A stretch of DNA of 64,000 nucleotides from Waterburya sp. Lineage in GTDB: Bacteria; Cyanobacteriota; Cyanobacteriia; Cyanobacteriales; Xenococcaceae. The notes under the pieces were generated by a model. That model did not search any database. It saw only the letters and a program-made list of their open reading frames with translations, and had not been told where the DNA came from. The stretch is taken from contig CBDCJV010000002.1 in assembly GCA_965217895.1 (NCBI GenBank), positions 4,000,001 to 4,064,000 of the forward strand, given 5' to 3'. Below, in pieces: positions 48,772 through 61,386 of this stretch (its first letter is position 1; every line of letters begins with the position of its first letter). The position numbers were made by a program, and so were the translations under genes.

Positions 48772-50229
48772 TTACAAAACTTTTTCTGATTTGGCACAGG
48801 GAGCGAGGAAACCTGAGCGAACTTTATAGGTGTAGCCAAGCTCTGGATGAAACCAAGGAGTATAGGCAAAAGCATAAGGATATAGTTTTGGTAGACAAAT
48901 TTTATCTCCTGGTTCGATTTGAGCCATAATTTCAGGGATAATTTTTTTTTCTTTGAATGCAGCTAGTGTATTGAAGCTGGGGTAAAGATAGATAAAATTG
49001 GTTTTAATACCAACAATAACTAGGGCAATTAAAGAAATTAATCCTAGACGACGGGGTTTAATTAATCGATCTTGATAATTAGTAACCAAGTATAAATTAA
49101 GAGAAATTAAAACTATCATCCAGTACATAAAGTACCTTAATTCGTGGGACTGAGGGAAATTGGCAGCGATTAGAGACATTACGCTTACTAATATTCCCGC
49201 CGTGTAATTGTTGCGGTTAGGATTTCTGGCGATTAGGTAAATCAATAATAAGACTTGGAACAATACATAAGCACCGAAGAAACCTCCCATGCGGTTGCGG
49301 TCTGGATTTTGGCTGTATTGATCGTGATTCCAGTAGGCAGGTTTGATTTCAATAATTGAATAAAACCACCGTTGCGCCTTTGGTGCATTCGCTAAATAGC
49401 CTGGGGCATTATTGTACATCGGTAAGGCATGATTGAGTACTTTGCCTGCAATTTCGATTTTGACGGGATAGAAAGGATTACCGTGAATTATTATATTTTT
49501 GATTGGGGTGGCAAAGATCAATAGAGAAGCAAGTAAAGCCAGGGGAATTGCCTTAAATATCCAAGAAATTAGCTGTTGTTTATTCGAGGAATTATCTAAT
49601 CGCAACCAGACAATTCTGAAGGCAATAAATACTAAGGCAATAAATACTAAAGGCTCTAGCTGCGGTTTGCAGTTTGATGAACCAATTCCAGCTAAAAAGA
49701 TAATTAATAAATCTCTGATACTGGGTAAATCTCGCTGCTTGAACAGTAGATAAGCCATCATAATCATCATTGCCAAAAACACATTAGCAATTAGATCTAC
49801 ATAGCTATTGACCACATGAGCCTGAATTAAAGGCACGGCTAAAAAAGCGATCGCCGATAGATAATAAGCAACCTGGAAATAACGCTTAAGAAAATAGCTA
49901 TATAAAACTAAGCTAAAAAAACCGACCAAATTAGCACTCTGGACTCTTTGAGTAATCAACCATAAAAACCCCTGAAAAAATTCGCCTAGCAGAGGAAAAC
50001 CGCGAAATCTTTCCTCCATATTGATAAACTGCTCTGCTGGTACAATGCCCCAAATCCTGGCAGCATAAGGCAGGTGATAACCCCAGGTATCAAAAGTACC
50101 GTCAACATCAATTACCCCCTTGAGAAATACAGAAATAGCTAAGATTGAAGCGATCGCTTTTAAAACAGTTTCTAGCCCCAGTCGTGATTTTTGAGGCTTA
50201 GAAGTTTTGTTGCTAACATTCGAGTTCAT
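48772..50229 (-). CDS. Polytopic membrane protein, paralog 3 of 3, putative GT-C fold glycosyltransferase
   Basis: Many hydrophobic helices; DVDGTFDTWGYHLPYAARIWG, GFPLL, SYVDL, GNPFYP, NFPQSHELRYFM. Confidence 0.65.
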   Translation of the reverse strand: MNSNVSNKTSKPQKSRLGLETVLKAIASILAISVFLKGVIDVDGTFDTWGYHLPYAARIWGIVPAEQFINMEERFRGFPLLGEFFQGFLWLITQRVQSANLVGFFSLVLYSYFLKRYFQVAYYLSAIAFLAVPLIQAHVVNSYVDLIANVFLAMMIMMAYLLFKQRDLPSIRDLLIIFLAGIGSSNCKPQLEPLVFIALVFIAFRIVWLRLDNSSNKQQLISWIFKAIPLALLASLLIFATPIKNIIIHGNPFYPVKIEIAGKVLNHALPMYNNAPGYLANAPKAQRWFYSIIEIKPAYWNHDQYSQNPDRNRMGGFFGAYVLFQVLLLIYLIARNPNRNNYTAGILVSVMSLIAANFPQSHELRYFMYWMIVLISLNLYLVTNYQDRLIKPRRLGLISLIALVIVGIKTNFIYLYPSFNTLAAFKEKKIIPEIMAQIEPGDKICLPKLYPYAFAYTPWFHPELGYTYKVRSGFLAPCAKSEKVL

Positions 50230-50283
50230 ACTACAGAGATAGTTGCGATCGCCATAATTGTTATGTGTCTAAAATTTATTAGT

Positions 50284-51834
50284 TTATTGATTATCAGTTT
50301 TCATTTGTCGATCGATAAACTCTTGAGCATTAGGGGGAATTACTTTCAAATCACCACAGTCTCTAGGATTTATCGCAGCTTTGATGGCATAGTCATATTT
50401 GATTTCAGGATGAAAATAAGAACTATAATAAAAAGCATTTTGAATTTGAGCAAAAGGCACGCTTTTTGGATTGGGGATGGCATGACGAGCAATCATACAG
50501 GTGCGCTGATTGGGTGTCATCTGCTCTAAAAGCTCTGGCTTGACGCTTCTGGCTATAAACTTGTCTAACGATGAGAAGCTTGGTTTAAGGTAATAAGGTG
50601 TAATTTTGCTAAAGGCGATCGCCATAAACAATAAACAAACTAACCCTAAGTACTTTGGCTGCAACCATTTTGAGCTTTGATTCTGTAACGAGGTAACAAC
50701 GCACAAGTTTAAAGATACTAGAGTAATCATCCAAAACATTAAGTAGCGCAACTCATGGGATTGAGGAAAATTTGCAGGTACAAGAGACACCAGCAGCATG
50801 ATTACAAGTGCAGCAGTAGCATTGGCAGATTTATCTTTAAGAGGCAGTTGTCTATTTTTTAATTGTTCTCGAATAGTCAAACCCAACATTAACAATAGGT
50901 TGAACACTACATAAGCACCAAAAAATCCCCCTGCTCGATCTAGATACTTCTCATTCCCACCATTCCATTGATCCGCCGACCAATTAGGAGTATTAATTTC
51001 CAAAATCGATCGCAGCCACTTTTGGGGTCTATTGCCTTCACTATAGGTATCAGGAGTCAGTTTATGGTTTAATACGATTCCCGCAACCTCAATTTTGATC
51101 GGGTAAAAAGGATTGCCATAAAGAGCAACATTTTTGATTGGGGTGGCAAAGATTAAGCCTGAAGCGACTATTGCTAGAGGTATAGTTAGCCATAGCTGGC
51201 GTTGCTTAGATTGAGTATGTTTAAAGTACAGCCAAACCAACCTAATTCCGACTATCCAGTAAAGTAAAAATACTAATGGCTGTAGTTGAGGTTTGATATT
51301 TGCTGCTGCTGCTGCGCCCAAAAAGGTAACTAGCAGTTCGTTTTTGTTGGGTAATTGAGACTGCTTAAAAAATCGATAGGTCATCAGCATTACGACTGAA
51401 ACCCCAATGTTTCCTGGCAAATCTACAAAGCTAGTGGCAGCATGAATCAGCACCACAGGAATGGTAAATAGCGCGATCGCTGATAGATATAGAGGGACTT
51501 GAAAGAAGTTTCTGAGGAAGAGAAAATAAATAATTAGACTTAGATAGCTAACTAGATTCGTGGACTGAATTCGCCCTGTAATTTTCCAGAATAAGCCTTG
51601 TAAAAAATTTGCCAACAAAGGAAAACCATCGTAACGATATTCAAAAAGAGATTCTGAGATAAAAGACTTTTCGGGGACTATACCCCAAATTCTGGCAGCA
51701 AAAGGCAGTTGATACCAACCGACATCATAGTTACTATCAATATCCATGATTGCTTTGAGAAATATCGATGTCGCCACGACTATGGCGATCACACTGAGAA
51801 TTATTTCTAATACTTGCCTCTTATTTTTCTGCAC
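50284..51834 (-). CDS. Polytopic membrane protein, paralog 2 of 3, putative GT-C fold glycosyltransferase
   Basis: DIDSNYDVGWYQLPFAARIWG, GFPLL, SFVDL, GNPFYP, NFPQSHELRYLM. Confidence 0.65.
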   Translation of the reverse strand: MQKNKRQVLEIILSVIAIVVATSIFLKAIMDIDSNYDVGWYQLPFAARIWGIVPEKSFISESLFEYRYDGFPLLANFLQGLFWKITGRIQSTNLVSYLSLIIYFLFLRNFFQVPLYLSAIALFTIPVVLIHAATSFVDLPGNIGVSVVMLMTYRFFKQSQLPNKNELLVTFLGAAAAANIKPQLQPLVFLLYWIVGIRLVWLYFKHTQSKQRQLWLTIPLAIVASGLIFATPIKNVALYGNPFYPIKIEVAGIVLNHKLTPDTYSEGNRPQKWLRSILEINTPNWSADQWNGGNEKYLDRAGGFFGAYVVFNLLLMLGLTIREQLKNRQLPLKDKSANATAALVIMLLVSLVPANFPQSHELRYLMFWMITLVSLNLCVVTSLQNQSSKWLQPKYLGLVCLLFMAIAFSKITPYYLKPSFSSLDKFIARSVKPELLEQMTPNQRTCMIARHAIPNPKSVPFAQIQNAFYYSSYFHPEIKYDYAIKAAINPRDCGDLKVIPPNAQEFIDRQMKTDNQ

Positions 51835-51856
51835 TGCTCACCTCTTACCATAATGG

Positions 51857-53476
51857 CTACTTTAAATTACTGGGTATCATAGTGCGATCGCCGCAGGCTT
51901 TGGGATCGAATGCCGTTTGAATCGAATAATCATAATCTAATTCAGGATGAAAGTAAGAGCTATAAATAAAGGCATACTTTAAAGATGCTGTTGGTGCAGT
52001 TTGGGTATCTTCTCCCATATGTTTACTTAGCAAACAAACCTGTTCGTTAGGCTTTATTTGTTCCATAAATTCTGCTTTAGCCCCATGGTAAACATATTTG
52101 TCTAAAGACAAAAATAATGGTCTGGCGTAGAAGCTACCAATTTTGACTAAGACTATGATTAGGAAAACAACATAGACTAATCCCATATATCTTGGCTGTA
52201 GCCATCGTCCTAAAAGCTGTCTATTTTTGGGTAAAGAAATTAAATAAAGGTTAAAAGATACTAAACAGATCATCCAGTACATAAAGTATCTCAGTTCATG
52301 AGATTGAGGAAAATTCAAAGGAACTAGAGAAATAACAAGTAGCGTCAAAAAAGCAACGCTAGCCTCTCTAGATTTGGCAAAATTATTGTTTTGTTCAGTT
52401 TTTAATTGTGTAAAGTCAGTTCTGTTTCTATTGATTAACAGATACTTATTGAGAGTTATTTCTCTAAGCAGAAATCCTGTCAGCAGTAGCAAATTAAATA
52501 CTACATAAGCCCCGAAGAAGCCTCCCCGCCGATTTCTTTGAGGGAAATCGCTCCATTGATCTGGTTTCCAAAAGTGAGGCGCATTTATTTCTAGTACTGA
52601 AGTAATCCAGTTTATTTGACGATTGCCTCCTTCAAAGGCATCTGGAGCTAGCTTATGGTTTAGTACAATTCCCGCTACCTGAATTTTGATAGGATAAAAA
52701 GGATTAGCGTAGACAACTGTATTTTTGACTGGACTTGCATAAATAATGACGATCGCCAATAAAGTAATTAGCAGAGTTTTGACTATTTGTTTTGCTGCTG
52801 GTTTTTGTTGCCAATAGAGCCAAGCAAGTCGAGAAATGGTAAAAATCAAAATAAATAAAACTAAAGGCTGTAGCTGAGTTTTAGTATTAACAGCGATCGC
52901 AGCACCGATAAAGGCAATCAGTAACTCTGAGAAATTTGGTAATTGCTTATTTTTATAAAAGCTATAGGTCATCATTACCAAAATAGATGTACCAACATTC
53001 CCAAATAAATCCACGTAGCTAGTAGTAGCGTTAGTCAAAACTAAAGGAATCGACAATAAAGCGATCGCCGATAAATAAAAAGGAACTTTAAAATAAGCTC
53101 TAAGAAAGAAGAAATAGCCAATAATACTCAAAAAGCCAACTAAGTTAGTTGATTGAATTCTTCCCGTGGTTTTCCAGAAGAATCCTTGCAAAAAATGCGC
53201 CAACAAAGGAAAACCATCAAATCGAGGTTCAAACCATTTTTCGTCTCCTAAAAACATTTCTTTGGGCAAAATGCCCCAGATTCTGCCAGCAAAAGGTAAA
53301 TGATACCAGCCAGGATCGTAGTTATTGTCAATATCAATGACTGCCTTGAGGAAAAGAGAAATAACTAGGGGGATGACAACTAAATATAAGATTGTCTCTA
53401 TTCCTATACTTGTTACTTTTTCTAGCCTGTATGGTTTTGATTGTTCTTTTTTACTAACTAAATTCAACATCGGCAA
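51857..53476 (-). CDS. Polytopic membrane protein, paralog 1 of 3, putative GT-C fold glycosyltransferase
   Basis: DIDNNYDPGWYHLPFAGRIWG, GFPLL, SYVDL, ANPFYP, NFPQSHELRYFM. Confidence 0.65.
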   Translation of the reverse strand: MPMLNLVSKKEQSKPYRLEKVTSIGIETILYLVVIPLVISLFLKAVIDIDNNYDPGWYHLPFAGRIWGILPKEMFLGDEKWFEPRFDGFPLLAHFLQGFFWKTTGRIQSTNLVGFLSIIGYFFFLRAYFKVPFYLSAIALLSIPLVLTNATTSYVDLFGNVGTSILVMMTYSFYKNKQLPNFSELLIAFIGAAIAVNTKTQLQPLVLFILIFTISRLAWLYWQQKPAAKQIVKTLLITLLAIVIIYASPVKNTVVYANPFYPIKIQVAGIVLNHKLAPDAFEGGNRQINWITSVLEINAPHFWKPDQWSDFPQRNRRGGFFGAYVVFNLLLLTGFLLREITLNKYLLINRNRTDFTQLKTEQNNNFAKSREASVAFLTLLVISLVPLNFPQSHELRYFMYWMICLVSFNLYLISLPKNRQLLGRWLQPRYMGLVYVVFLIIVLVKIGSFYARPLFLSLDKYVYHGAKAEFMEQIKPNEQVCLLSKHMGEDTQTAPTASLKYAFIYSSYFHPELDYDYSIQTAFDPKACGDRTMIPSNLK

Positions 53477-53627: not shown

Positions 53628-54650
53628 TTACTGGTTTTCCTTTGGTGTAAATAAAGCAAATCGCTCAACCAAAGCAACTACAGCAAACACGGCTAAAACA
53701 ATCACCACCGCAACGATGTAGAGAAATCTTTGCATTAGCGAAAACTGAACTGCCATGGCATCTGGTACATCAAATAACCTTAATAAACCAATCCAGCTAA
53801 ATTCCATTAGTCCCAAATTAGCTGGAGTAAAGCTGAGTAACATTGCCAACTGGACAATGGGCGTAACAAAAACTACTGCCGATAGCTTAATTTTAAAGCC
53901 TCCGGCGATCGCAATTAAGATCCCGCGAATAATCCAAACGATATAGCGAACTACGGAAATCCAATAAAGGTAAAGAGTAAAATTTTTACCTAATACAGAA
54001 TCTTTGCCCACTTTTGCTGCTGGTTGAACATCAGCCTTGTTTTTGCCTGGTTTTAGCCCTTTAACCCAGGAGAGAAATTTAATCAGTGAAGTAATCAGGC
54101 TGCGATGCCATTTATTGATCATAAAATGAACTGCAATAATTGTGGCAATCCAGATCCAAACCGCTACAGATAAAGAAATATAGTTAAAGACAAACAGAAT
54201 TGCAGCAGGAAAAAGCAAGAAAGGAATTAAAAAATTAAAAAATTGATCGTAAACAACTAATAAAAAACCCTTAGAAATTGAACTAATTTTATGAACTCTT
54301 AAAGCTAGGTTTTGTACCATCACCATGCCCACATACTGAGGCATAAACTGCATGGTTAATGAGCCTAAAGTTGTATAAAAAAAATAAAACTTTAAGGGCT
54401 GTTGGCTATCGGGAGTAAGCTTTTGGGTGACCAAGCCCCACTTATATGCCGATAAAAAAGTATGTACAATTAATGCCGTAATTGCCAGTCCAGCATAGAC
54501 TGGATTTAGACTATAAAAGGTAGTAACAACTTCCTCTACGTCTACATTTGTAAAGCGCAGAATCAACCAGACTAAGAAAAATCCTAGACCCAGAGATAAG
54601 ATACTAGATATAACGTTTTTCTTAGTTAACATTTGTTGTTTATTATTCAA
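53628..54650 (-). CDS. Lysylphosphatidylglycerol-synthase TM domain (UPF0104) flippase-like protein
   Basis: Multi-TM protein; AYKW, YDQFF, SFTPANLGLME (TPxxLGxxE), QRF. Confidence 0.75.
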   Translation of the reverse strand: MNNKQQMLTKKNVISSILSLGLGFFLVWLILRFTNVDVEEVVTTFYSLNPVYAGLAITALIVHTFLSAYKWGLVTQKLTPDSQQPLKFYFFYTTLGSLTMQFMPQYVGMVMVQNLALRVHKISSISKGFLLVVYDQFFNFLIPFLLFPAAILFVFNYISLSVAVWIWIATIIAVHFMINKWHRSLITSLIKFLSWVKGLKPGKNKADVQPAAKVGKDSVLGKNFTLYLYWISVVRYIVWIIRGILIAIAGGFKIKLSAVVFVTPIVQLAMLLSFTPANLGLMEFSWIGLLRLFDVPDAMAVQFSLMQRFLYIVAVVIVLAVFAVVALVERFALFTPKENQ

Positions 54651-54701: not shown

Positions 54702-55664
54702 TTACTCTACCTTAGAATCAAGACCGCTTTGAGCAACGGCTATATCGTATCCCCATTTAGTTTCCAAGTCCAAGCCAGTTAGTGCCGATATCTTGGCAAC
54801 CTCTGGCTGATATTGCTGCATTAATTTGAGTCTGATTGATTCAGGCATACTAGCTTTGGGGGCTTGATGCCAAAAGAATCTTTCAACGATATTATCCCGT
54901 ACAAAATCATTAAATTCTTGAGAAAGCAGGTTTTTAGAAATGTTTTTAACCAGAGGATTATTAACTAAATTGTTAATTGCTGAAAACTTAACTTCTTTAT
55001 TAACGTTAATTGCACCATATTCAGGAGTAAAGCGAGGATTTACGCCGAGGAATTCTAAAATCTCTCGATAAATACGCTCATTTTCTGACTTAAACTCCTC
55101 AAAAATTACTATTTTGATTTGCTCTGCTTTAAAGCGATCGCAATATCTTTTTACCTGCTGATAATATTTAACTCTTTGGTCGTAGTAAAGATAGCTAGGG
55201 CTGGTAACCCTAGGACTAGGATACTTTTCCTGTTTACGCTCCTCTTCCTTTGCCAAAGCGGTCAAAAAGTCTGGCTCGTTTTCTTCAGTAAACTTGACGT
55301 AGTGGCTGTGAAGAGAATAGAGATATTTAGCTGGTTCACGCAGAATAATAATTATTTTAGCATCGGGATTAAAGTTATAAATCTTTTCTGCTGCTACCTG
55401 AGAATAAAGATAGTTGGTCGAAGATTCCCCAACAATTTTCGCCCCATCTGTTCGTGCAAAAAGCTGTAGATAAGCAGACTCACTTCTAAAGTCAAAAAAA
55501 CGCTGTTTACCATAAAAGCGATCGCTTTCTAAATGAAAGTCAGAGCAAAAAAAATGTGGCTCTTTGATGCTGGACATAAAGATCTCAGGATGCTGTCCCA
55601 AAAACTGATGTAAAGCCGTTGTTCCAGATTTTGGTTGACCGACAATAAATAAGTTAGGCTTCAT
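54702..55664 (-). CDS. Sulfotransferase family protein
   Basis: Likely start is ATG 55664 (MKPNLFIVGQPKSGTTAL, 5'-PSB loop). Also KEPHFF, GESSTNY, ILREPAKYLYS (3'-PB). Confidence 0.93.
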   Translation of the reverse strand: MKPNLFIVGQPKSGTTALHQFLGQHPEIFMSSIKEPHFFCSDFHLESDRFYGKQRFFDFRSESAYLQLFARTDGAKIVGESSTNYLYSQVAAEKIYNFNPDAKIIIILREPAKYLYSLHSHYVKFTEENEPDFLTALAKEEERKQEKYPSPRVTSPSYLYYDQRVKYYQQVKRYCDRFKAEQIKIVIFEEFKSENERIYREILEFLGVNPRFTPEYGAINVNKEVKFSAINNLVNNPLVKNISKNLLSQEFNDFVRDNIVERFFWHQAPKASMPESIRLKLMQQYQPEVAKISALTGLDLETKWGYDIAVAQSGLDSKVE

Positions 55665-55693: not shown

Positions 55694-56629
55694 TTAGGTT
55701 TGAGTCTGTAGTTTTGCCTTCAGTCTGGCAGATACCCGCTCTTGAATTCGAGAATCTTGCCAATATCTGTGCCATCCTCCAGGACCTAATAAAACAAAAT
55801 CAGTAGCAAGCTTAAATAGCTGAGTCGATTCACCATGAACCATTGCTGCTAAAGTAGTGTTGACCTCTGTGGAGAAAAAGGCAACTTTGGCAACTTGAGT
55901 TGATTTTGACTGAAGATATTTGTCTACCACCGAGCGCATCTGTTGACGAAACTCGGCTACGCTAGAGCTTCGACGGATGGTTTGAGAATCACCATGTACC
56001 CTAAAAGCTGCTAAAGGCTGCGAAATATAGTAAGTTTTTCCCGCTGAAGCAAGCTTGAGCCAAAAGTCCCAGTCAGCGGTATACCAGAGATCGTTATTTA
56101 GTCCACCTAAATCAAGAGCAGCTTGGCGATTGAATACAGGAGAAGGGATGGCAATAAAGTTCTGGATTACCAGCTTCTGGATCATTTCTTGAGCAGATAC
56201 TACCTGACGATCCTTGAGAGGACATTGCCAGAGACCCAGGGGTTTACCTTCTCGATCGATAAATACTGAGTCATGGAGATAAAGACTAGCTTGGGGATGA
56301 GTTGCGATCGCTTTTTTAATGGCATTTAAACGCCCTTGCAGCCAAAGATCATCCTGATGCAGAAAACAGGCATATTTTCCCCTCGCCACGGAAAGAGCAT
56401 GGTTAGTATTGGCTACCCAGTTACCCTGTCTGGCTTTAGTAATCAGCTTGACATTAAGCTTATCCTTAAAGCTCTCAACAATGTCTAAAGTATTGTCTGT
56501 CGAGCCATCATCAATGACAACACATTCAAGTTCGGGATCTTGCTGCATCAATATAGAATCAAGTGCTGCTGCTAGATACTTACTGCCATTGTAGGTAGGA
56601 ACAATTACTGATAACCAAGGTTGAATCAT
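55694..56629 (-). CDS. Glycosyltransferase family 2
   Basis: SVIVPTYNG, IDDGSTD, FLHQDD, DWDFWLK, FRVH. Confidence 0.93.
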   Translation of the reverse strand: MIQPWLSVIVPTYNGSKYLAAALDSILMQQDPELECVVIDDGSTDNTLDIVESFKDKLNVKLITKARQGNWVANTNHALSVARGKYACFLHQDDLWLQGRLNAIKKAIATHPQASLYLHDSVFIDREGKPLGLWQCPLKDRQVVSAQEMIQKLVIQNFIAIPSPVFNRQAALDLGGLNNDLWYTADWDFWLKLASAGKTYYISQPLAAFRVHGDSQTIRRSSSVAEFRQQMRSVVDKYLQSKSTQVAKVAFFSTEVNTTLAAMVHGESTQLFKLATDFVLLGPGGWHRYWQDSRIQERVSARLKAKLQTQT

Positions 56630-57822
56630 CGTTTTAATCCTAAAATACTTAAGAAGAAACTAGAGAAGATTGTTTGAATACCCAAGGCTAAACAAGTTAC
56701 CCCAGGAATAATGATCGGCATGGTTTCAGTCGGATTTAGTGAACCAAAATCATGTTCTCCCCAAATACCAAAGGCATATACTGATGCTGCTGTACCCATT
56801 ATAAATAGAGCGCAACCAGCGATCAAACCTGTTTCAAGGTTAAGATATTTTAATAGTCTGTTTAAGCGTCTATCCTCAGGTAATAGTCCTTCACTAATGC
56901 CAAACACTTTAGTAAACAAAGCAAACATAACGATTTGAAAACCAATAGTCATTGCCGTGGATGAATATAGCAGGCTATGTACTTTGGGACTTGGCAAAAG
57001 GGATAGAGTTGCTAGCAAACCACCCAAAATCAAAAAGATGCCAGGATAGAAGAACAACCAACGAGGGCTATACATTAATAGGAAGCGTAGGTGTCTCCAA
57101 CCATCTCGCCAGGTATTGAGGTGAGGAGGACGACTACGACCGTCAGGAGATAGAGTAGTAGGCACTTCGGTAATCTGCATTTTATGAAGGGTAGCTTTAA
57201 CTACCATCTCGCTAGCGAATTCCATGCCTGTAGTTTGCAAATCTAAATTAGTAATCGCATCTTTGCGAAAACCTCTTAAACCACAGTGAAAGTCGTCACA
57301 GGGACTACCAAATAGAAGCTTACCAATACCAGTTAAAACTGGATTTCCTAAATAACGGTGTAGAAAAGGCATTGCTCCTGATTCGATGCCACCTTTGAAA
57401 CGATTTCCCATTACTAGGTCATAACCATTGCGTAACTTTTTAATAAAAGGATTGAGATTACTAAAGTCATAGCTATCATCAGCATCACCCATAATGATGT
57501 ACTGACCTTTAGCCGCTTCAATACCACCTTTTAGCGCGCTACCGTAACCTTTTGTAGGGATATTAACTACTCTGGCATTAAGTCTTCTGGCAATTTCTTG
57601 AGAGCCATCGTCACTGCCGTTGTCGGCAATAATTACTTCTCCTGCAAGGTCGTTTTCGGCAATAAACCATTGAGCTTTCTTAATACAGGTTTCTAAGGTT
57701 TCTGCCTCGTTTAAACAGGGCATGATAATGGAAACTTCGATCGCATTAGCTGTATTAGTTTGCTCGATACGATTGAATCGTCCACTAACCAGTGTTTCTC
57801 TTGTGCTTACGTTACCCAACAT
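56626..57822 (-). CDS. GT2 polyprenol-phosphate glycosyltransferase (DPM1/GtrB-like) with C-terminal TM helices
   Basis: IMPCLNEA, ADNGSDDGS, GYGSAL, MGDADDSYD, VMGNRF, DFHCGLRGF, MEFASEM, WRDGWRHL. Confidence 0.92.
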   Translation of the reverse strand: MLGNVSTRETLVSGRFNRIEQTNTANAIEVSIIMPCLNEAETLETCIKKAQWFIAENDLAGEVIIADNGSDDGSQEIARRLNARVVNIPTKGYGSALKGGIEAAKGQYIIMGDADDSYDFSNLNPFIKKLRNGYDLVMGNRFKGGIESGAMPFLHRYLGNPVLTGIGKLLFGSPCDDFHCGLRGFRKDAITNLDLQTTGMEFASEMVVKATLHKMQITEVPTTLSPDGRSRPPHLNTWRDGWRHLRFLLMYSPRWLFFYPGIFLILGGLLATLSLLPSPKVHSLLYSSTAMTIGFQIVMFALFTKVFGISEGLLPEDRRLNRLLKYLNLETGLIAGCALFIMGTAASVYAFGIWGEHDFGSLNPTETMPIIIPGVTCLALGIQTIFSSFFLSILGLKR

Positions 57823-58650: not shown

Positions 58651-61386
58651 ATGCAATTCAAGCAAAAGATAATCGTGACGCTGCTATTTATAGCGATCGC
58701 AACTTTAACCTTAGTTTCTAGCCTTGTCCACTTGTTAACCGAGTCTTGGTGGTTTGAGGCAGTTGGCTTTGAGGCGATTTTTTGGCAGCGTATTATTTGG
58801 CAAGTATCTATTTGGCTAGTTGCCTTTGCTGTTTTTGTAGTGTTTTTAGGGTTTAATTATTGGTTAGCGTTAAAATTGACGAGCGATCGCAGCTTTAGAT
58901 TTCTAGAATCTAATGAATTTGAACCTTATACTGCCAAGATTGCCAATTACACGGCTGCATTGCTTATTTTCTTAGCTTCTCTAACTATTGCTAATCTCAG
59001 CGCAGCATCTTGGGAACAAATTCTACAATTTTTCAATGCCTCTGAGTTTAATCGTTTCGAGCCGATCTACCAAAAAGATATTGGCTTTTATTTATTCCGT
59101 TTACCTCTTTTTGACAACTTGAAAAATTGGTTTCTCACCCTGTTAATTTCAGGCTCGATTCTAGCAGCCTTGGTTTATGTATTCAAAGGAACTATTCGCT
59201 TTAATTGGCAGTGGAAAAGCTTAATCCTTGAGGACAATTGGCAGAAGCTCTTAACAAAGCCAATCAAGATACATATTTGTTTTTTATTAGCAGCGATCGC
59301 TCTTGATATTGCCGTTGATTTTTGGCTGGAGCGTTATGAACTACTCTATTCTTCTCAAGGCGTAGTTTGGGGCGCAGACTATACCAGTACCCATGCCCGC
59401 TTGCTGGCATTTTGGGTGATGATTGTCGCTTCGGTACTCTTAGGACTCTGGTTAATCATTTCTACCTGGTCTAATAAACTCCAACTTCCTGTCTACGGCA
59501 TTGGTATATACGCCGTAATTCTCATTCTGTTTAATGGGATTTTTCCTGAGTTACAGCAGCGTTTTGTCGTCGAACCCAACGAATTAGCTAAGGAGATGCC
59601 CTATATTAAGCATAATATTGAGTTTACGCGGTCGGCTTATGATTTAGACAAGATCGATACAAAAGATTACCAATTAAATTTAGCAGGCAATTCTAATCCT
59701 AATGTTCTGCAAGAAAACCAAGCCACCATTGATAATATTCCTCTGTGGGACTATCGCCCCCTACTAACTACCTATCGACAGCTACAGGAAATCCGCTTTT
59801 ACTATAAATTTCTGGATGTTGATGTTGATCGCTACACCCTCAATGGCGATTATCGTCAGATGATGCTTTCTCCCAGGGAATTTGATTATAGTCAAGTTCC
59901 CGCCTCTGCTAAAACCTGGGTCAACCGCCGACTCAAGTATACTCATGGTTATGGCTTGGTCATGAACCCCGTCAATGAAGTCACTACTGATGGTCTACCA
60001 GTCTTATTTGTCAAAAACATTCCTCCCGTTTCTGAGACAGATTTAGCTATTAAAGAACCAGGAATTTACTATGGTGAGTTGACTCAAGACTATATCTATA
60101 CGGGAATGAATACCCCTGAGTTTGACTATCCCCGTGGAGATGAAAATGCCTTTAGCAAATACGATGGTGTAGGTGGTGTCCCCATTGGTAATTGGTTACG
60201 TAAGCTGGCGTATGCCTACGATCGAGGCAGTTTAAAAATTCTTATTTCCAATTACTTTACCTCAAATTCTCGCATTCACTATCACCGACAAATATCAGAG
60301 CGAGTGCGCCATGTTGCCCCTTTTCTGCAATTCGATAATGACCCCTATATGGTGGTGGTAAATGGTAGGCTCAAGTGGATTATCGATGCTTATACTACAA
60401 GCGATCGCTATCCTTATTCTGAAGCTGTGGCACACGAACAAAAAACGGAATTAATCACCGATAAAAATATTAACTACGTTCGTAGTCCCGCTAAAGTAGT
60501 TGTGGATGCCAAAGATGGCACAATGCAGTTTTACGTTGTTGATGAAAACGAGCCTGTCCTAAATACTTACCGCAAGATATTTCCCAATCTATTTAAGGGC
60601 AAAGATACTATCCCCCCAGAAATTCAGGCTCATTTTCGTTATCCCCAAGATTTATTTAAAGTTCAAGCCAGAATGTACTTGAGCTATCACATGGAAGATC
60701 CTCAAGTATTTTATAACCGCGAGGATGACTGGCGTTTTGCTACCGAACTCTATAATGATCGACAGCAGCCAGTTGAACCTGATTATTTAATTATGAAGTT
60801 GCCAGGAGAAACTAAAGAAGAATTTTCTTTAGTTCTCCCTTTTACCCCCGTCAACCGCGATAACATGATTGCCTGGATGGCTGCTCGTTCGGATGGCGAT
60901 AATTACGGCAAACTTAGCCTTTATGAATTCCCTAAACAAGAACTAGTATATGGTTCTTTTCAGATCGAAGCCAGAATCGATCAAGATCCTGAAATTGCCC
61001 AACAAATAACCCTTTGGAGTCAAACAGGTTCGAGGGTAATTAGAGGAGATATTCTGGTCATTCCCATCGATGGTTCAATACTTTATGTCCAACCTCTATA
61101 TCTGCGCGCTGCTAAAGGTCAGTTACCCGAACTCACCCGCATTATTGTCTCCTACGACAAACAAATTGTTATGACTCCCAGTTTAGAACAATCTTTGGCT
61201 GCGGTATTTAAACAAGTCCCCACCCAATTGAACCCCTCTATAAATCCTGCCACAGCAGATACTCAAGCCCAGCAATCTGCACTAGAAATATATCGGCAAG
61301 CTCAACAAGCTTTACAACAAGGAAACTGGGTAGAATACGGACGCTATCAGCAACAGCTACAGGATATTTTGCAAAAATCAAATTAA
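58651..61386 (+). CDS. UPF0182 family membrane protein
   Basis: WWFEAVGF, DIGFYLFRLP, NIPLWD, YTHGYG, WIIDAYTTS, NYVR, HFRYP. Confidence 0.93.
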   Translation: MQFKQKIIVTLLFIAIATLTLVSSLVHLLTESWWFEAVGFEAIFWQRIIWQVSIWLVAFAVFVVFLGFNYWLALKLTSDRSFRFLESNEFEPYTAKIANYTAALLIFLASLTIANLSAASWEQILQFFNASEFNRFEPIYQKDIGFYLFRLPLFDNLKNWFLTLLISGSILAALVYVFKGTIRFNWQWKSLILEDNWQKLLTKPIKIHICFLLAAIALDIAVDFWLERYELLYSSQGVVWGADYTSTHARLLAFWVMIVASVLLGLWLIISTWSNKLQLPVYGIGIYAVILILFNGIFPELQQRFVVEPNELAKEMPYIKHNIEFTRSAYDLDKIDTKDYQLNLAGNSNPNVLQENQATIDNIPLWDYRPLLTTYRQLQEIRFYYKFLDVDVDRYTLNGDYRQMMLSPREFDYSQVPASAKTWVNRRLKYTHGYGLVMNPVNEVTTDGLPVLFVKNIPPVSETDLAIKEPGIYYGELTQDYIYTGMNTPEFDYPRGDENAFSKYDGVGGVPIGNWLRKLAYAYDRGSLKILISNYFTSNSRIHYHRQISERVRHVAPFLQFDNDPYMVVVNGRLKWIIDAYTTSDRYPYSEAVAHEQKTELITDKNINYVRSPAKVVVDAKDGTMQFYVVDENEPVLNTYRKIFPNLFKGKDTIPPEIQAHFRYPQDLFKVQARMYLSYHMEDPQVFYNREDDWRFATELYNDRQQPVEPDYLIMKLPGETKEEFSLVLPFTPVNRDNMIAWMAARSDGDNYGKLSLYEFPKQELVYGSFQIEARIDQDPEIAQQITLWSQTGSRVIRGDILVIPIDGSILYVQPLYLRAAKGQLPELTRIIVSYDKQIVMTPSLEQSLAAVFKQVPTQLNPSINPATADTQAQQSALEIYRQAQQALQQGNWVEYGRYQQQLQDILQKSN

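Follow-up and report, generated by a model that had tools for sequence, protein, structure and literature searches.

A predicted GT-C transferase family with tandem paralogs in a sulfotransferase-containing operon of the cyanobacterium Waterburya

A 64,000-nucleotide stretch of the genome of the cyanobacterium Waterburya sp. (assembly GCA_965217895.1, contig CBDCJV010000002.1, positions 4,000,001 to 4,064,000; the whole stretch is called the window here, and feature coordinates count from its first letter) carries three tandem genes for related membrane proteins, copies A, B and C. Structural models indicate that these proteins are very probably GT-C transferases. Together with four genes upstream they form a seven-gene operon that we read, with a probability of about 0.45, as a multi-component envelope glycosylation system, likely one that attaches a sulfated short glycan to a surface polysaccharide, with each copy serving a different acceptor site. 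What is added to a preliminary description, made from the sequence alone, is the conserved sulfotransferase operon and a link to the Synechocystis protein Sll1531.

Fold and candidate active site of the three copies

Copies C (51857-53476, 539 aa), B (50284-51834, 516 aa) and A (48772-50229, 485 aa) are intact open reading frames arranged head-to-tail on the minus strand, with gaps of 22 bases between C and B and 54 bases between B and A. BLASTP (E<=1e-131) gave identities of 42.6% for A-B (over 493 aa), 40.2% for A-C (540 aa) and 51.3% for B-C (515 aa), and a tblastn search of the source genome at E<=0.01 found no fourth copy. The shared motifs reported in the preliminary description were recovered, in that each of nine regular expressions matches once per protein, and so was a Cys pair in the C-terminal domain (A C445/C478, B C446/C493, C C481/C528), which is kept at each position in 126 of 130 family members. 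The claim that the motifs are invariant holds among the three copies, but many of them vary across the wider family of 130 aligned members. The first motif begins, as had been described, directly at the end of the first membrane helix, TM1 (residues 5-30 in the model of B).

AlphaFold2 models were obtained for copy B from 130 sequences (predicted local distance difference test, pLDDT, 95.8; predicted template modelling score, pTM, 0.94) and for copy C from 47 sequences (pLDDT 90.1). In both, the chain forms 11 membrane helices and a small C-terminal domain of alpha/beta type; the loop that follows TM1 is helical, and loop 4 is long. The ten best Foldseek matches were all GT-C enzymes. With VIA-align, copy B matched ArnT at Z 19.3 (root-mean-square deviation, rmsd, 5.9 A; 392 residues aligned) and Pmt4 at Z 18.4, the first unrelated entry following at 4.6. 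An unbiased search of 48,161 chains placed 14 GT-C transferases at the top, led by ArnT (Z 18.8, rmsd 5.3, 403 aligned); the top 20 consisted of 17 GT-C transferases and three chains of glycosylphosphatidylinositol (GPI) transamidase, after which the first unrelated fold appeared at Z 5.9. Copy C followed the same ranking pattern (ArnT at Z 18.6, rmsd 4.5, 384 aligned), and across the searches ArnT scored Z 18.3-19.3 and Pmt proteins Z 16-18. GT-C(A) enzymes are described as a seven-helix N-terminal membrane module joined to a variable C-terminal module (PMC13503287, accessible text); the 11 helices of both models and their Z scores to ArnT and Pmt are those of such a membrane module. The GT-C reading of the preliminary description is supported by these two independent models and by four fold searches. 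Copies B and C are predicted to be GT-C(A) transferases, and copy A is predicted to be one by homology to them.

A transporter fold was considered and rejected: MFS and SLC entries appeared only from Foldseek rank 14 (probability <=0.25, TM-score <=0.15) and reached Z<=4 in structural alignment. Nothing that the preliminary description had named as telling against its proposal turned up, neither a transporter or other fold, nor a cytoplasmic loop 1, nor a family already characterised.

The rank of ArnT, the top structural match of both models, bears on the acceptor. If the copies acted on a lipid (lipid A/core or a glycolipid), as do ArnT and the Rhizobium Rgt transferases, each would add an acidic sugar at a different position. 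The Rgt transferases share one lipid donor. Several of them act on lipopolysaccharide core and lipid A (PMC9393093, accessible text), and the name of the family to which the flippase-like protein of the operon is assigned refers to phospholipid transport. However, the Z lead of ArnT over GT-C enzymes acting on proteins or glycans lies within the tie range of the tool, and no lipid A gene occurs among the recurrent neighbours that were annotated; a lipid acceptor appears improbable.

Topology was derived from the model helices with the N-terminus placed inside. Inner loops contain 0.19-0.34 Lys or Arg per residue and outer loops 0.004-0.17, and all 36 loop positions conserved in >=80% of the 130 aligned members (numbered here as in copy B) lie in outer loops or the C-terminal domain, none in inner loops. 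Since the inner loops are rich in Lys and Arg and the conserved positions are all external, loop 1 is predicted to face outward, in agreement with the preliminary description. The predicted arrangement, N-terminus in, C-terminus out and polar conservation on the external face, is that of GT-C(A) enzymes.

The acidic residues of loop 1 had been taken together as a catalytic signature. This stands for the third Asp, B D37, present in 129/130 members, but not for the first (D31, 76/130) or the second (D33, 102/130), and all three occur together in only 58/130. Judged by this conservation, the third is the only credible candidate for the catalytic base among them. Its codons lie on the minus strand at 51724-51726 (B D37) and, in the same alignment column, at 50089-50091 (A D47) and 53315-53317 (C D54). 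As placed by secondary structure, D37 opens a first helix of external loop 1 (residues 36-49), which is followed by a second (62-70); in GT-C(A) enzymes, the catalytic base sits on the first loop-1 helix (PMC13503287 and PMC12331936, accessible text). Near-invariant polar residues are also found in external loops 2, 3 and 5, namely D138 (129/130), K/R181 (130/130) and R363 (129/130). GT-C motifs sit in these loops, following a four-motif pattern in eukaryotes (PMC6801728, accessible text), and the eukaryotic loop 2 and loop 3 patterns are recognisable here as H131 (94/130)-x6-D138 and K/R181. By analogy, D138, K181 and R363 may act near the donor phosphate.

The preliminary description could assign no named family, and this was borne out for Pfam and NCBIfam, where nothing came near a cut-off for any copy. 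A profile of the three copies matches 621 clusters at 50% identity (E<=0.001), 224 of them at 1e-30. Weak Pfam matches are scattered among 93 members (DUF2142 in 3, PMT_2 in 1 at E<=0.1, MFS_1 in 1). PMT_2 (PF13231) gave no hmmscan match to the copies; in a six-frame search of the source genome, copy C reached 18.6 bits, below the cut-off of 26.1, and six other genes were PMT_2-positive. The nearest ESM Atlas neighbours were unnamed clusters; PMT_2/PMT clusters came after these, at 0.97-0.98. Precomputed DUF8201 (PF26626) matches exist for 7/120 distant and 0/120 close members, and four listed relatives bear the automatic UniRef name 'RgtA/B/C/D-like', so a GT-C guess is already contained in the automatic annotation of a few members. 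A PDB sequence search with the 130-member profile returned nothing under E 0.2, and profile comparison with two neighbouring PMT_2-like proteins gave a probability of <=0.2%. No viral or phage carriage was detected: none of 58 pattern matches in IMG/VR was confirmed, and no member appeared among 50,697 phage records. Neither family nor cassette is described in the literature searched, which did not extend to supplementary tables of Synechocystis omics and mutant-library papers.

The operon and its conservation in Pleurocapsales

The nature of the donor is best indicated by the four genes upstream of the copies, all on the minus strand. The first (56626-57822, 398 aa) encodes a GT2 glycosyltransferase with four C-terminal membrane segments by hydropathy, resembling polyprenyl-phosphate sugar synthases of the dolichol monophosphate mannose (DPM) synthase, AglJ or GtrB type. 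It scores over the cut-off of PF00535, and its best NCBIfam matches, AglJ (119.6 bits) and dolichol phosphate (DolP)-hexose transferase (92.2), both fall under theirs; the sole PDB sequence match at E<=1e-8 is the DPM synthase 5MLZ (E 4.7e-14). It can thus be recognised as a polyprenyl-phosphate sugar synthase by homology, at scores below equivalog cut-offs. The second gene (55694-56629, 311 aa), whose start overlaps the end of the first by 4 bases, encodes a soluble GT2 glycosyltransferase (PF00535, 95.9 bits; no membrane segment). The third (54702-55664, 320 aa) encodes a soluble sulfotransferase dependent on 3'-phosphoadenosine 5'-phosphosulfate (PAPS), likely starting at Met38 of the listed reading frame. 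PF00685 and PF13469 are both over cut-off, both PAPS motifs are present in 35/36 orthologs, no membrane segment is found, and the PDB matches are 3RNL (E 1e-43) followed by heparan sulfate N- and 3-O-sulfotransferases. The fourth (53628-54650, 340 aa) encodes a flippase-like membrane protein of the LPG_synthase_TM/TIGR00374 family (PF03706, 69.2 bits against a cut-off of 33.4; TIGR00374, 50.7 against 43.2). The match is to a flippase family that is not of the GtrA, Wzx or MATE type, and a Pfam scan of the seven operon genes and flanking genes found no Wzx, Wzy or co-polymerase.

Hundreds of homologous proteins from Pleurocapsales assign the window to this group of cyanobacteria. All 61 genomes of the host's taxonomic family were surveyed. 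The operon order recurs across Pleurocapsales loci, and all four partners are present in 29 of 71 loci, many of which are short or have relocated copies. The GT-C family occurs in 50/61 genomes and a synthase ortholog in 52, namely all 50 and two family-negative ones. The sulfotransferase ortholog was found in 49/50 family-positive genomes (the lone exception being 77% complete) and in 0/11 negative ones, a match whose independence is overstated because the genomes are kin, so that the counts should not be read as a statistical test. Counted from the survey tables, no more than 2.5 kb separates the sulfotransferase gene from a family match in 48/49 genomes. In four patchy or negative genera, presence and absence of family and sulfotransferase coincide.

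This co-occurrence bears on whether the sulfate travels with the donor. Alternatively, the donor could be a plain polyprenyl-phosphate monosaccharide, with the soluble GT2 and the sulfotransferase acting on the acceptor or on an unrelated glycan and the copies adding neutral sugars, possibly sequentially. A neighbouring sulfotransferase gene is missing in most of the family (the distant clade and the Microseira-type and Sll1531-type loci described below), and classical three-component systems use monosaccharide donors (PMC11127046, accessible text), both as this alternative would have it. However, for a separate acceptor the operon offers neither a priming phosphoglycosyl transferase nor another exporter, and the sulfotransferase was lost together with the GT-C family in the four genera. 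We therefore regard a plain donor as unlikely.

Copy number is 2-3 in each of the nine genomes with <=10 contigs; the triplication is an old, lineage-wide expansion and ordinary for this lineage. In a FastTree analysis of 98 proteins (the 90 of 105 family reading frames that reach 440 aa, and 8 long forms; Shimodaira-Hasegawa-like support), A, B and C fall into separate clades of 8, 26 and 26 rows, each with support 100 and spanning several genera. A fourth paralog clade of 6 rows (L045, L053, L030, L069, L031 and L056; support 100) is not represented in the source genome. Clade C members follow the flippase gene in 25/26 cases, the remaining one being at a contig end. Clade B members never do so directly, following another copy in 8 cases and an FkbM methyltransferase in 5, and often lie elsewhere in the genome. 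A check of the ratio of non-synonymous to synonymous substitution rates (dN/dS) among paralogs had been proposed. Because synonymous sites are saturated between them (proportion of synonymous differences, pS, 0.71-0.73), dN/dS was taken from ortholog pairs only, and the 18 pairs gave values of 0.095-0.20, indicating purifying selection. Old duplications that were retained, as suggested in the preliminary description, are thus supported by both the tree and the ortholog comparisons.

Between clades, 37 positions are fixed differently (>=85%), a number inflated by the 8 sequences of clade A; four of them surround D37 (35, 38-40) and eight lie in external loop 4. The signatures at the candidate catalytic Asp are D-T-W-G in clade A, D-V-G-W in B and D-P-G-W in C. 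Acceptor contacts of GT-C enzymes are discussed in PMC13503287 (accessible text), and the clade-fixed differences near D37 and in loop 4 would fit different acceptors. The copies might instead be redundant and serve gene dosage, or they might have a GT-C fold but act as lipid-binding scaffolds without catalysis. Copy number does vary between genomes, and a GPI-transamidase subunit has this fold. Against both possibilities, the clades predate the sampled genera, are under purifying selection and carry clade-fixed residues beside the catalytic Asp, and four catalytic-type residues are near-invariant in members down to ~25% identity. We consider this explanation very improbable.

Several further features of these loci were noted. 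Octamers of sequence GCGATCGC, the cyanobacterial HIP1 element, lie at or near the copy junctions (50230-50300 and 51835-51900) and upstream of the operon (near 58700). In 19 loci, the window among them, the operon is flanked by a divergently oriented UPF0182 gene (58651-61386 of the window, plus strand), an AT-rich spacer of ~830 bases separating the two. A promoter/terminator scan showed no excess over shuffled sequence (29 vs 32.4; 10 vs 8.4). An FkbM methyltransferase gene adjoins family copies in 8 Pleurocapsales loci (e.g. L030:9009-9854), often just before a B-type copy; the source genome has no close ortholog of it (best 29% identity).

Proposed mechanism and the family in other lineages

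In the mechanism that we propose, the DPM-synthase-like GT2 would make a polyprenyl-phosphate sugar, as its homology suggests. The soluble GT2 would then add a second sugar and the sulfotransferase would sulfate the lipid-bound glycan; this step, the weakest, is suggested by gene order and co-occurrence. Since the sulfotransferase has no membrane segment, it would have to act before export. There are parallels for both reactions: glycan extension takes place on a C55-monophosphate carrier in lactococci (PMC10821137, accessible text) and, in Halobacterium, a glycan is sulfated while bound to DolP (PMC11980604, accessible text). In line with its family match, the LPG_synthase_TM protein would flip the glycan lipid, its putative substrate, outward. 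In the periplasm, the copies would transfer the glycan with the loop-1 Asp (B D37) as base and, by analogy, D138, K181 and R363 near the donor phosphate. The copies would differ by acceptor site rather than donor, with C the resident core copy and A, B and the fourth clade accessory. Of the parts of this scheme, supply of the donor by this operon is quite likely, whereas sulfate carried on the donor is somewhat favoured, and we lean to the same degree towards a polysaccharide acceptor.

In a phylum-wide sample, 20/401 genomes matched (three candidates scored per genome). One locus (L012) encodes a protein identical to Sll1531 of Synechocystis PCC 6803, which is 34-38% identical to the three copies. 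Sll1531 is a single-copy protein of 608 aa with an N-terminal extension of ~110 aa and GGD in place of the first two Asp. Its neighbours are an FkbM methyltransferase and two large GT4/GT2 proteins, with PMT_2-type genes following in some genomes. The literature found mentions it in a signature-protein table and leaves it uncharacterised; Synechocystis omics and mutant-library supplements were not searched. The hydrophobic N-terminal extension of this 600-aa form (L004-L020) was compared with DUF2304, flippase and synthase sequences and rejected as a fragment of any of them (hhalign probability <0.5% each). The UCYN-A symbiont genome is strongly reduced; in a UCYN-A4 record (Candidatus Atelocyanobacterium thalassae, L094:9665-11450), a 595-aa member lies behind an FkbM methyltransferase.

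In a distant metagenomic clade, a convergent PpgS/GacI-like GT2 gene lies downstream in 30 of the 38 loci with >=1.5 kb of flank (41/80 overall), and a DUF2304 gene is present in 34/80 loci; one member of another clade (P0223) is fused to DUF2304. GacJ, a DUF2304 protein, activates the undecaprenyl phosphate N-acetylglucosamine synthase GacI (bioRxiv 10.1101/180810, accessible text). An Azospirillum argentinense member on a plasmid (L107:14836-16392) follows an AglJ-like GT2 in an O-antigen cluster with rhamnose, methyltransferase and ABC-transporter genes. Microseira-type loci (L070, L072, L073, L093) place a member among 1-3 copies of another membrane family of ~510 aa (weak PMT_2, E 0.013), with the same synthase and two methyltransferases ahead in 3/4 loci and no flippase or sulfotransferase. 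Other members outside the cyanobacterial clades are scattered, for example in Thiomargarita and Methylomonas koyamae (L090 and P0412 are among these loci). The constant partner of the family is a polyprenyl-phosphate sugar synthase, and the decorating enzyme varies between sulfo- and methyltransferase.

Several observations weigh against a sulfated-glycan system acting on surface polysaccharide, in addition to the kinship of the surveyed genomes and the small size of clade A. With regard to the fold, no Foldseek match reached E<=0.001 (best 1.2e-3), rmsd values to the best matches are high (4.5-5.9 A), and a GPI-transamidase subunit has the same fold at Z 8-9, so the fold by itself is no proof of sugar transfer. 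With regard to the active site, equivalences to known GT-C residues rest on loop position rather than residue-level superposition. In addition, the Rx4-14P motif is not seen, a Pro following R363 in 13/130 members, so the family is not filed under any eukaryotic GT-C family. Sulfation is not family-wide: the 600-aa form has mostly methyltransferases and large glycosyltransferases as neighbours, and searches of five of its genomes with the operon queries found no close flippase or sulfotransferase ortholog and the synthase in 2/5. The synthase is also retained in the two family-negative genomes, the six other PMT_2-positive genes of the source genome could share the donor, and the operon encodes no acceptor pathway. 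Two glycan clusters elsewhere in that genome, with genes labelled by eye, could supply acceptors. One (C2:1030812-1036430, ~1.03 Mb) has two sulfotransferase-like genes around a Wzx-like gene, and the other (C2:4385002-4402869, ~4.39 Mb) has many glycosyltransferase and methyltransferase genes and an ABC ATPase-like gene.

The same donor pathway could also serve proteins such as S-layer proteins, pilins or secreted proteins, each copy having its own proteins or sites. Pmt4 and Pmt1-2 differ from ArnT by no more than 1-2 Z units and are followed by STT3/AglB, and the gene set parallels Agl28, Agl25-27, Agl30-31, Agl29 and AglB (PMC11980604, accessible text). However, the 11 helices of the copies in place of 13, their C-terminal domain of ~100 aa and their lack of a WWDxG motif argue against a protein acceptor, as do the O-antigen setting of the Azospirillum member and the fact that no conserved candidate target gene adjoins the operon. 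We judge protein acceptors to be rather unlikely, if slightly less so than a lipid.

The glycosylation of surface polysaccharide by a sulfated glycan remains our preferred reading. A broader extension of it is tentative. Bacteria may possess a Wzx/Wzy-free route in which, on the haloarchaeal pattern, a sulfated oligosaccharide is assembled on undecaprenyl monophosphate and transferred en bloc by GT-C paralogs that would be new at the level of a CAZy family, each marking a different sheath, O-antigen or surface-protein position in Pleurocapsales, with a methylated-donor version in Synechocystis (Sll1531) and UCYN-A. Sulfated polysaccharides are characteristic of cyanobacteria, and the route described in the literature found, that of synechan, is of the Wzx/Wzy type. 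If our proposal is correct, there would be a second mechanism, in which a sulfated side group is added after export, and it might serve as a tool for producing defined sulfated glycans. The analysis assigns, from structure and gene context, a 621-cluster family that has no model in the Pfam and NCBIfam libraries searched and that, as it includes Sll1531, can be tested in the genetically tractable Synechocystis; the weight of this is limited by the fact that unannotated GT-C families and multi-GT-C cassettes are common.

Comparison with known systems

ArnT (GT83) is the best structural match (Z 18.3-19.3 over almost the whole chain) and shares an acidic residue after TM1 and a polyprenyl-phosphate synthase partner. 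Unlike ArnT, the copies show 11-12% identity to it, PMT_2 scores under cut-off and one invariant loop-1 acid; no arn genes lie nearby, the ArnC model reaching 34.6 bits against a cut-off of 529. The acceptor motif of STT3, PglB and AglB is WWDxG. Of the features of these enzymes, 13 helices and this motif, neither was found: the model of B has 11 helices, and the motif is absent from the three sequences.

GT136 (Citrobacter ORF12; PMC11127046, accessible text) was compared by published motifs only. It has 11 helices and belongs to a three-component system, and it shares a D-x3-Y after TM1 (D31/Y35 in GT136, D37/Y41 here) and a late RY pair (R349-Y350 and R363-Y364). Its catalytic loop reads D-x2-E-Y, with D31 and E34 both essential, whereas at the position matching E34 clade A has G, and clades B and C and the fourth clade have W. 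The partners differ as well, being a synthase that uses phosphoribosyl pyrophosphate and a MATE flippase in GT136, as against a GT2 synthase and an LPG_synthase_TM flippase here.

GacI/J/K/L of S. pyogenes and WpsA/B/C-F/G/J of lactococci combine, in the accessible accounts, a polyprenyl-monophosphate donor, a flippase and a GT-C enzyme, and in lactococci cytoplasmic glycosyltransferases extend the donor before export. The distant clade of the present family adjoins a GacI/PpgS-like and DUF2304 pair, as in Gac. In contrast, Gac and Wps act on Gram-positive rhamnan acceptors, use a Wzx-type flippase and have no sulfotransferase, and the likeness is known here from gene content, not from kinship to GacL or WpsJ. 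N-glycosylation in Halobacterium salinarum (Agl25-31, AglB; PMC11980604, accessible text) resembles the proposed pathway in its lipid-monophosphate glycan, which is sulfated while lipid-bound, flipped and transferred en bloc. It is archaeal, with a single STT3-type transferase and protein acceptors, unlike the 2-4 non-STT3 paralogs of a bacterium found here.

Within cyanobacteria, the synechan xss cluster (PMC8205485, accessible text) likewise groups sulfotransferases with glycosyltransferases, but relies on Wzx, Wzy, a co-polymerase and a priming transferase, none of which is in this operon. Sll1531 differs from the copies in its single-copy state, its 608 aa, its GGD and a neighbourhood of FkbM and two large glycosyltransferases instead of the sulfotransferase type. 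While lacking the tested features of GT83, GT136 and STT3, the cassette would by analogy work in the manner of the Gtr, Arn, Gac and Wps-type systems (PMC11127046, accessible text).

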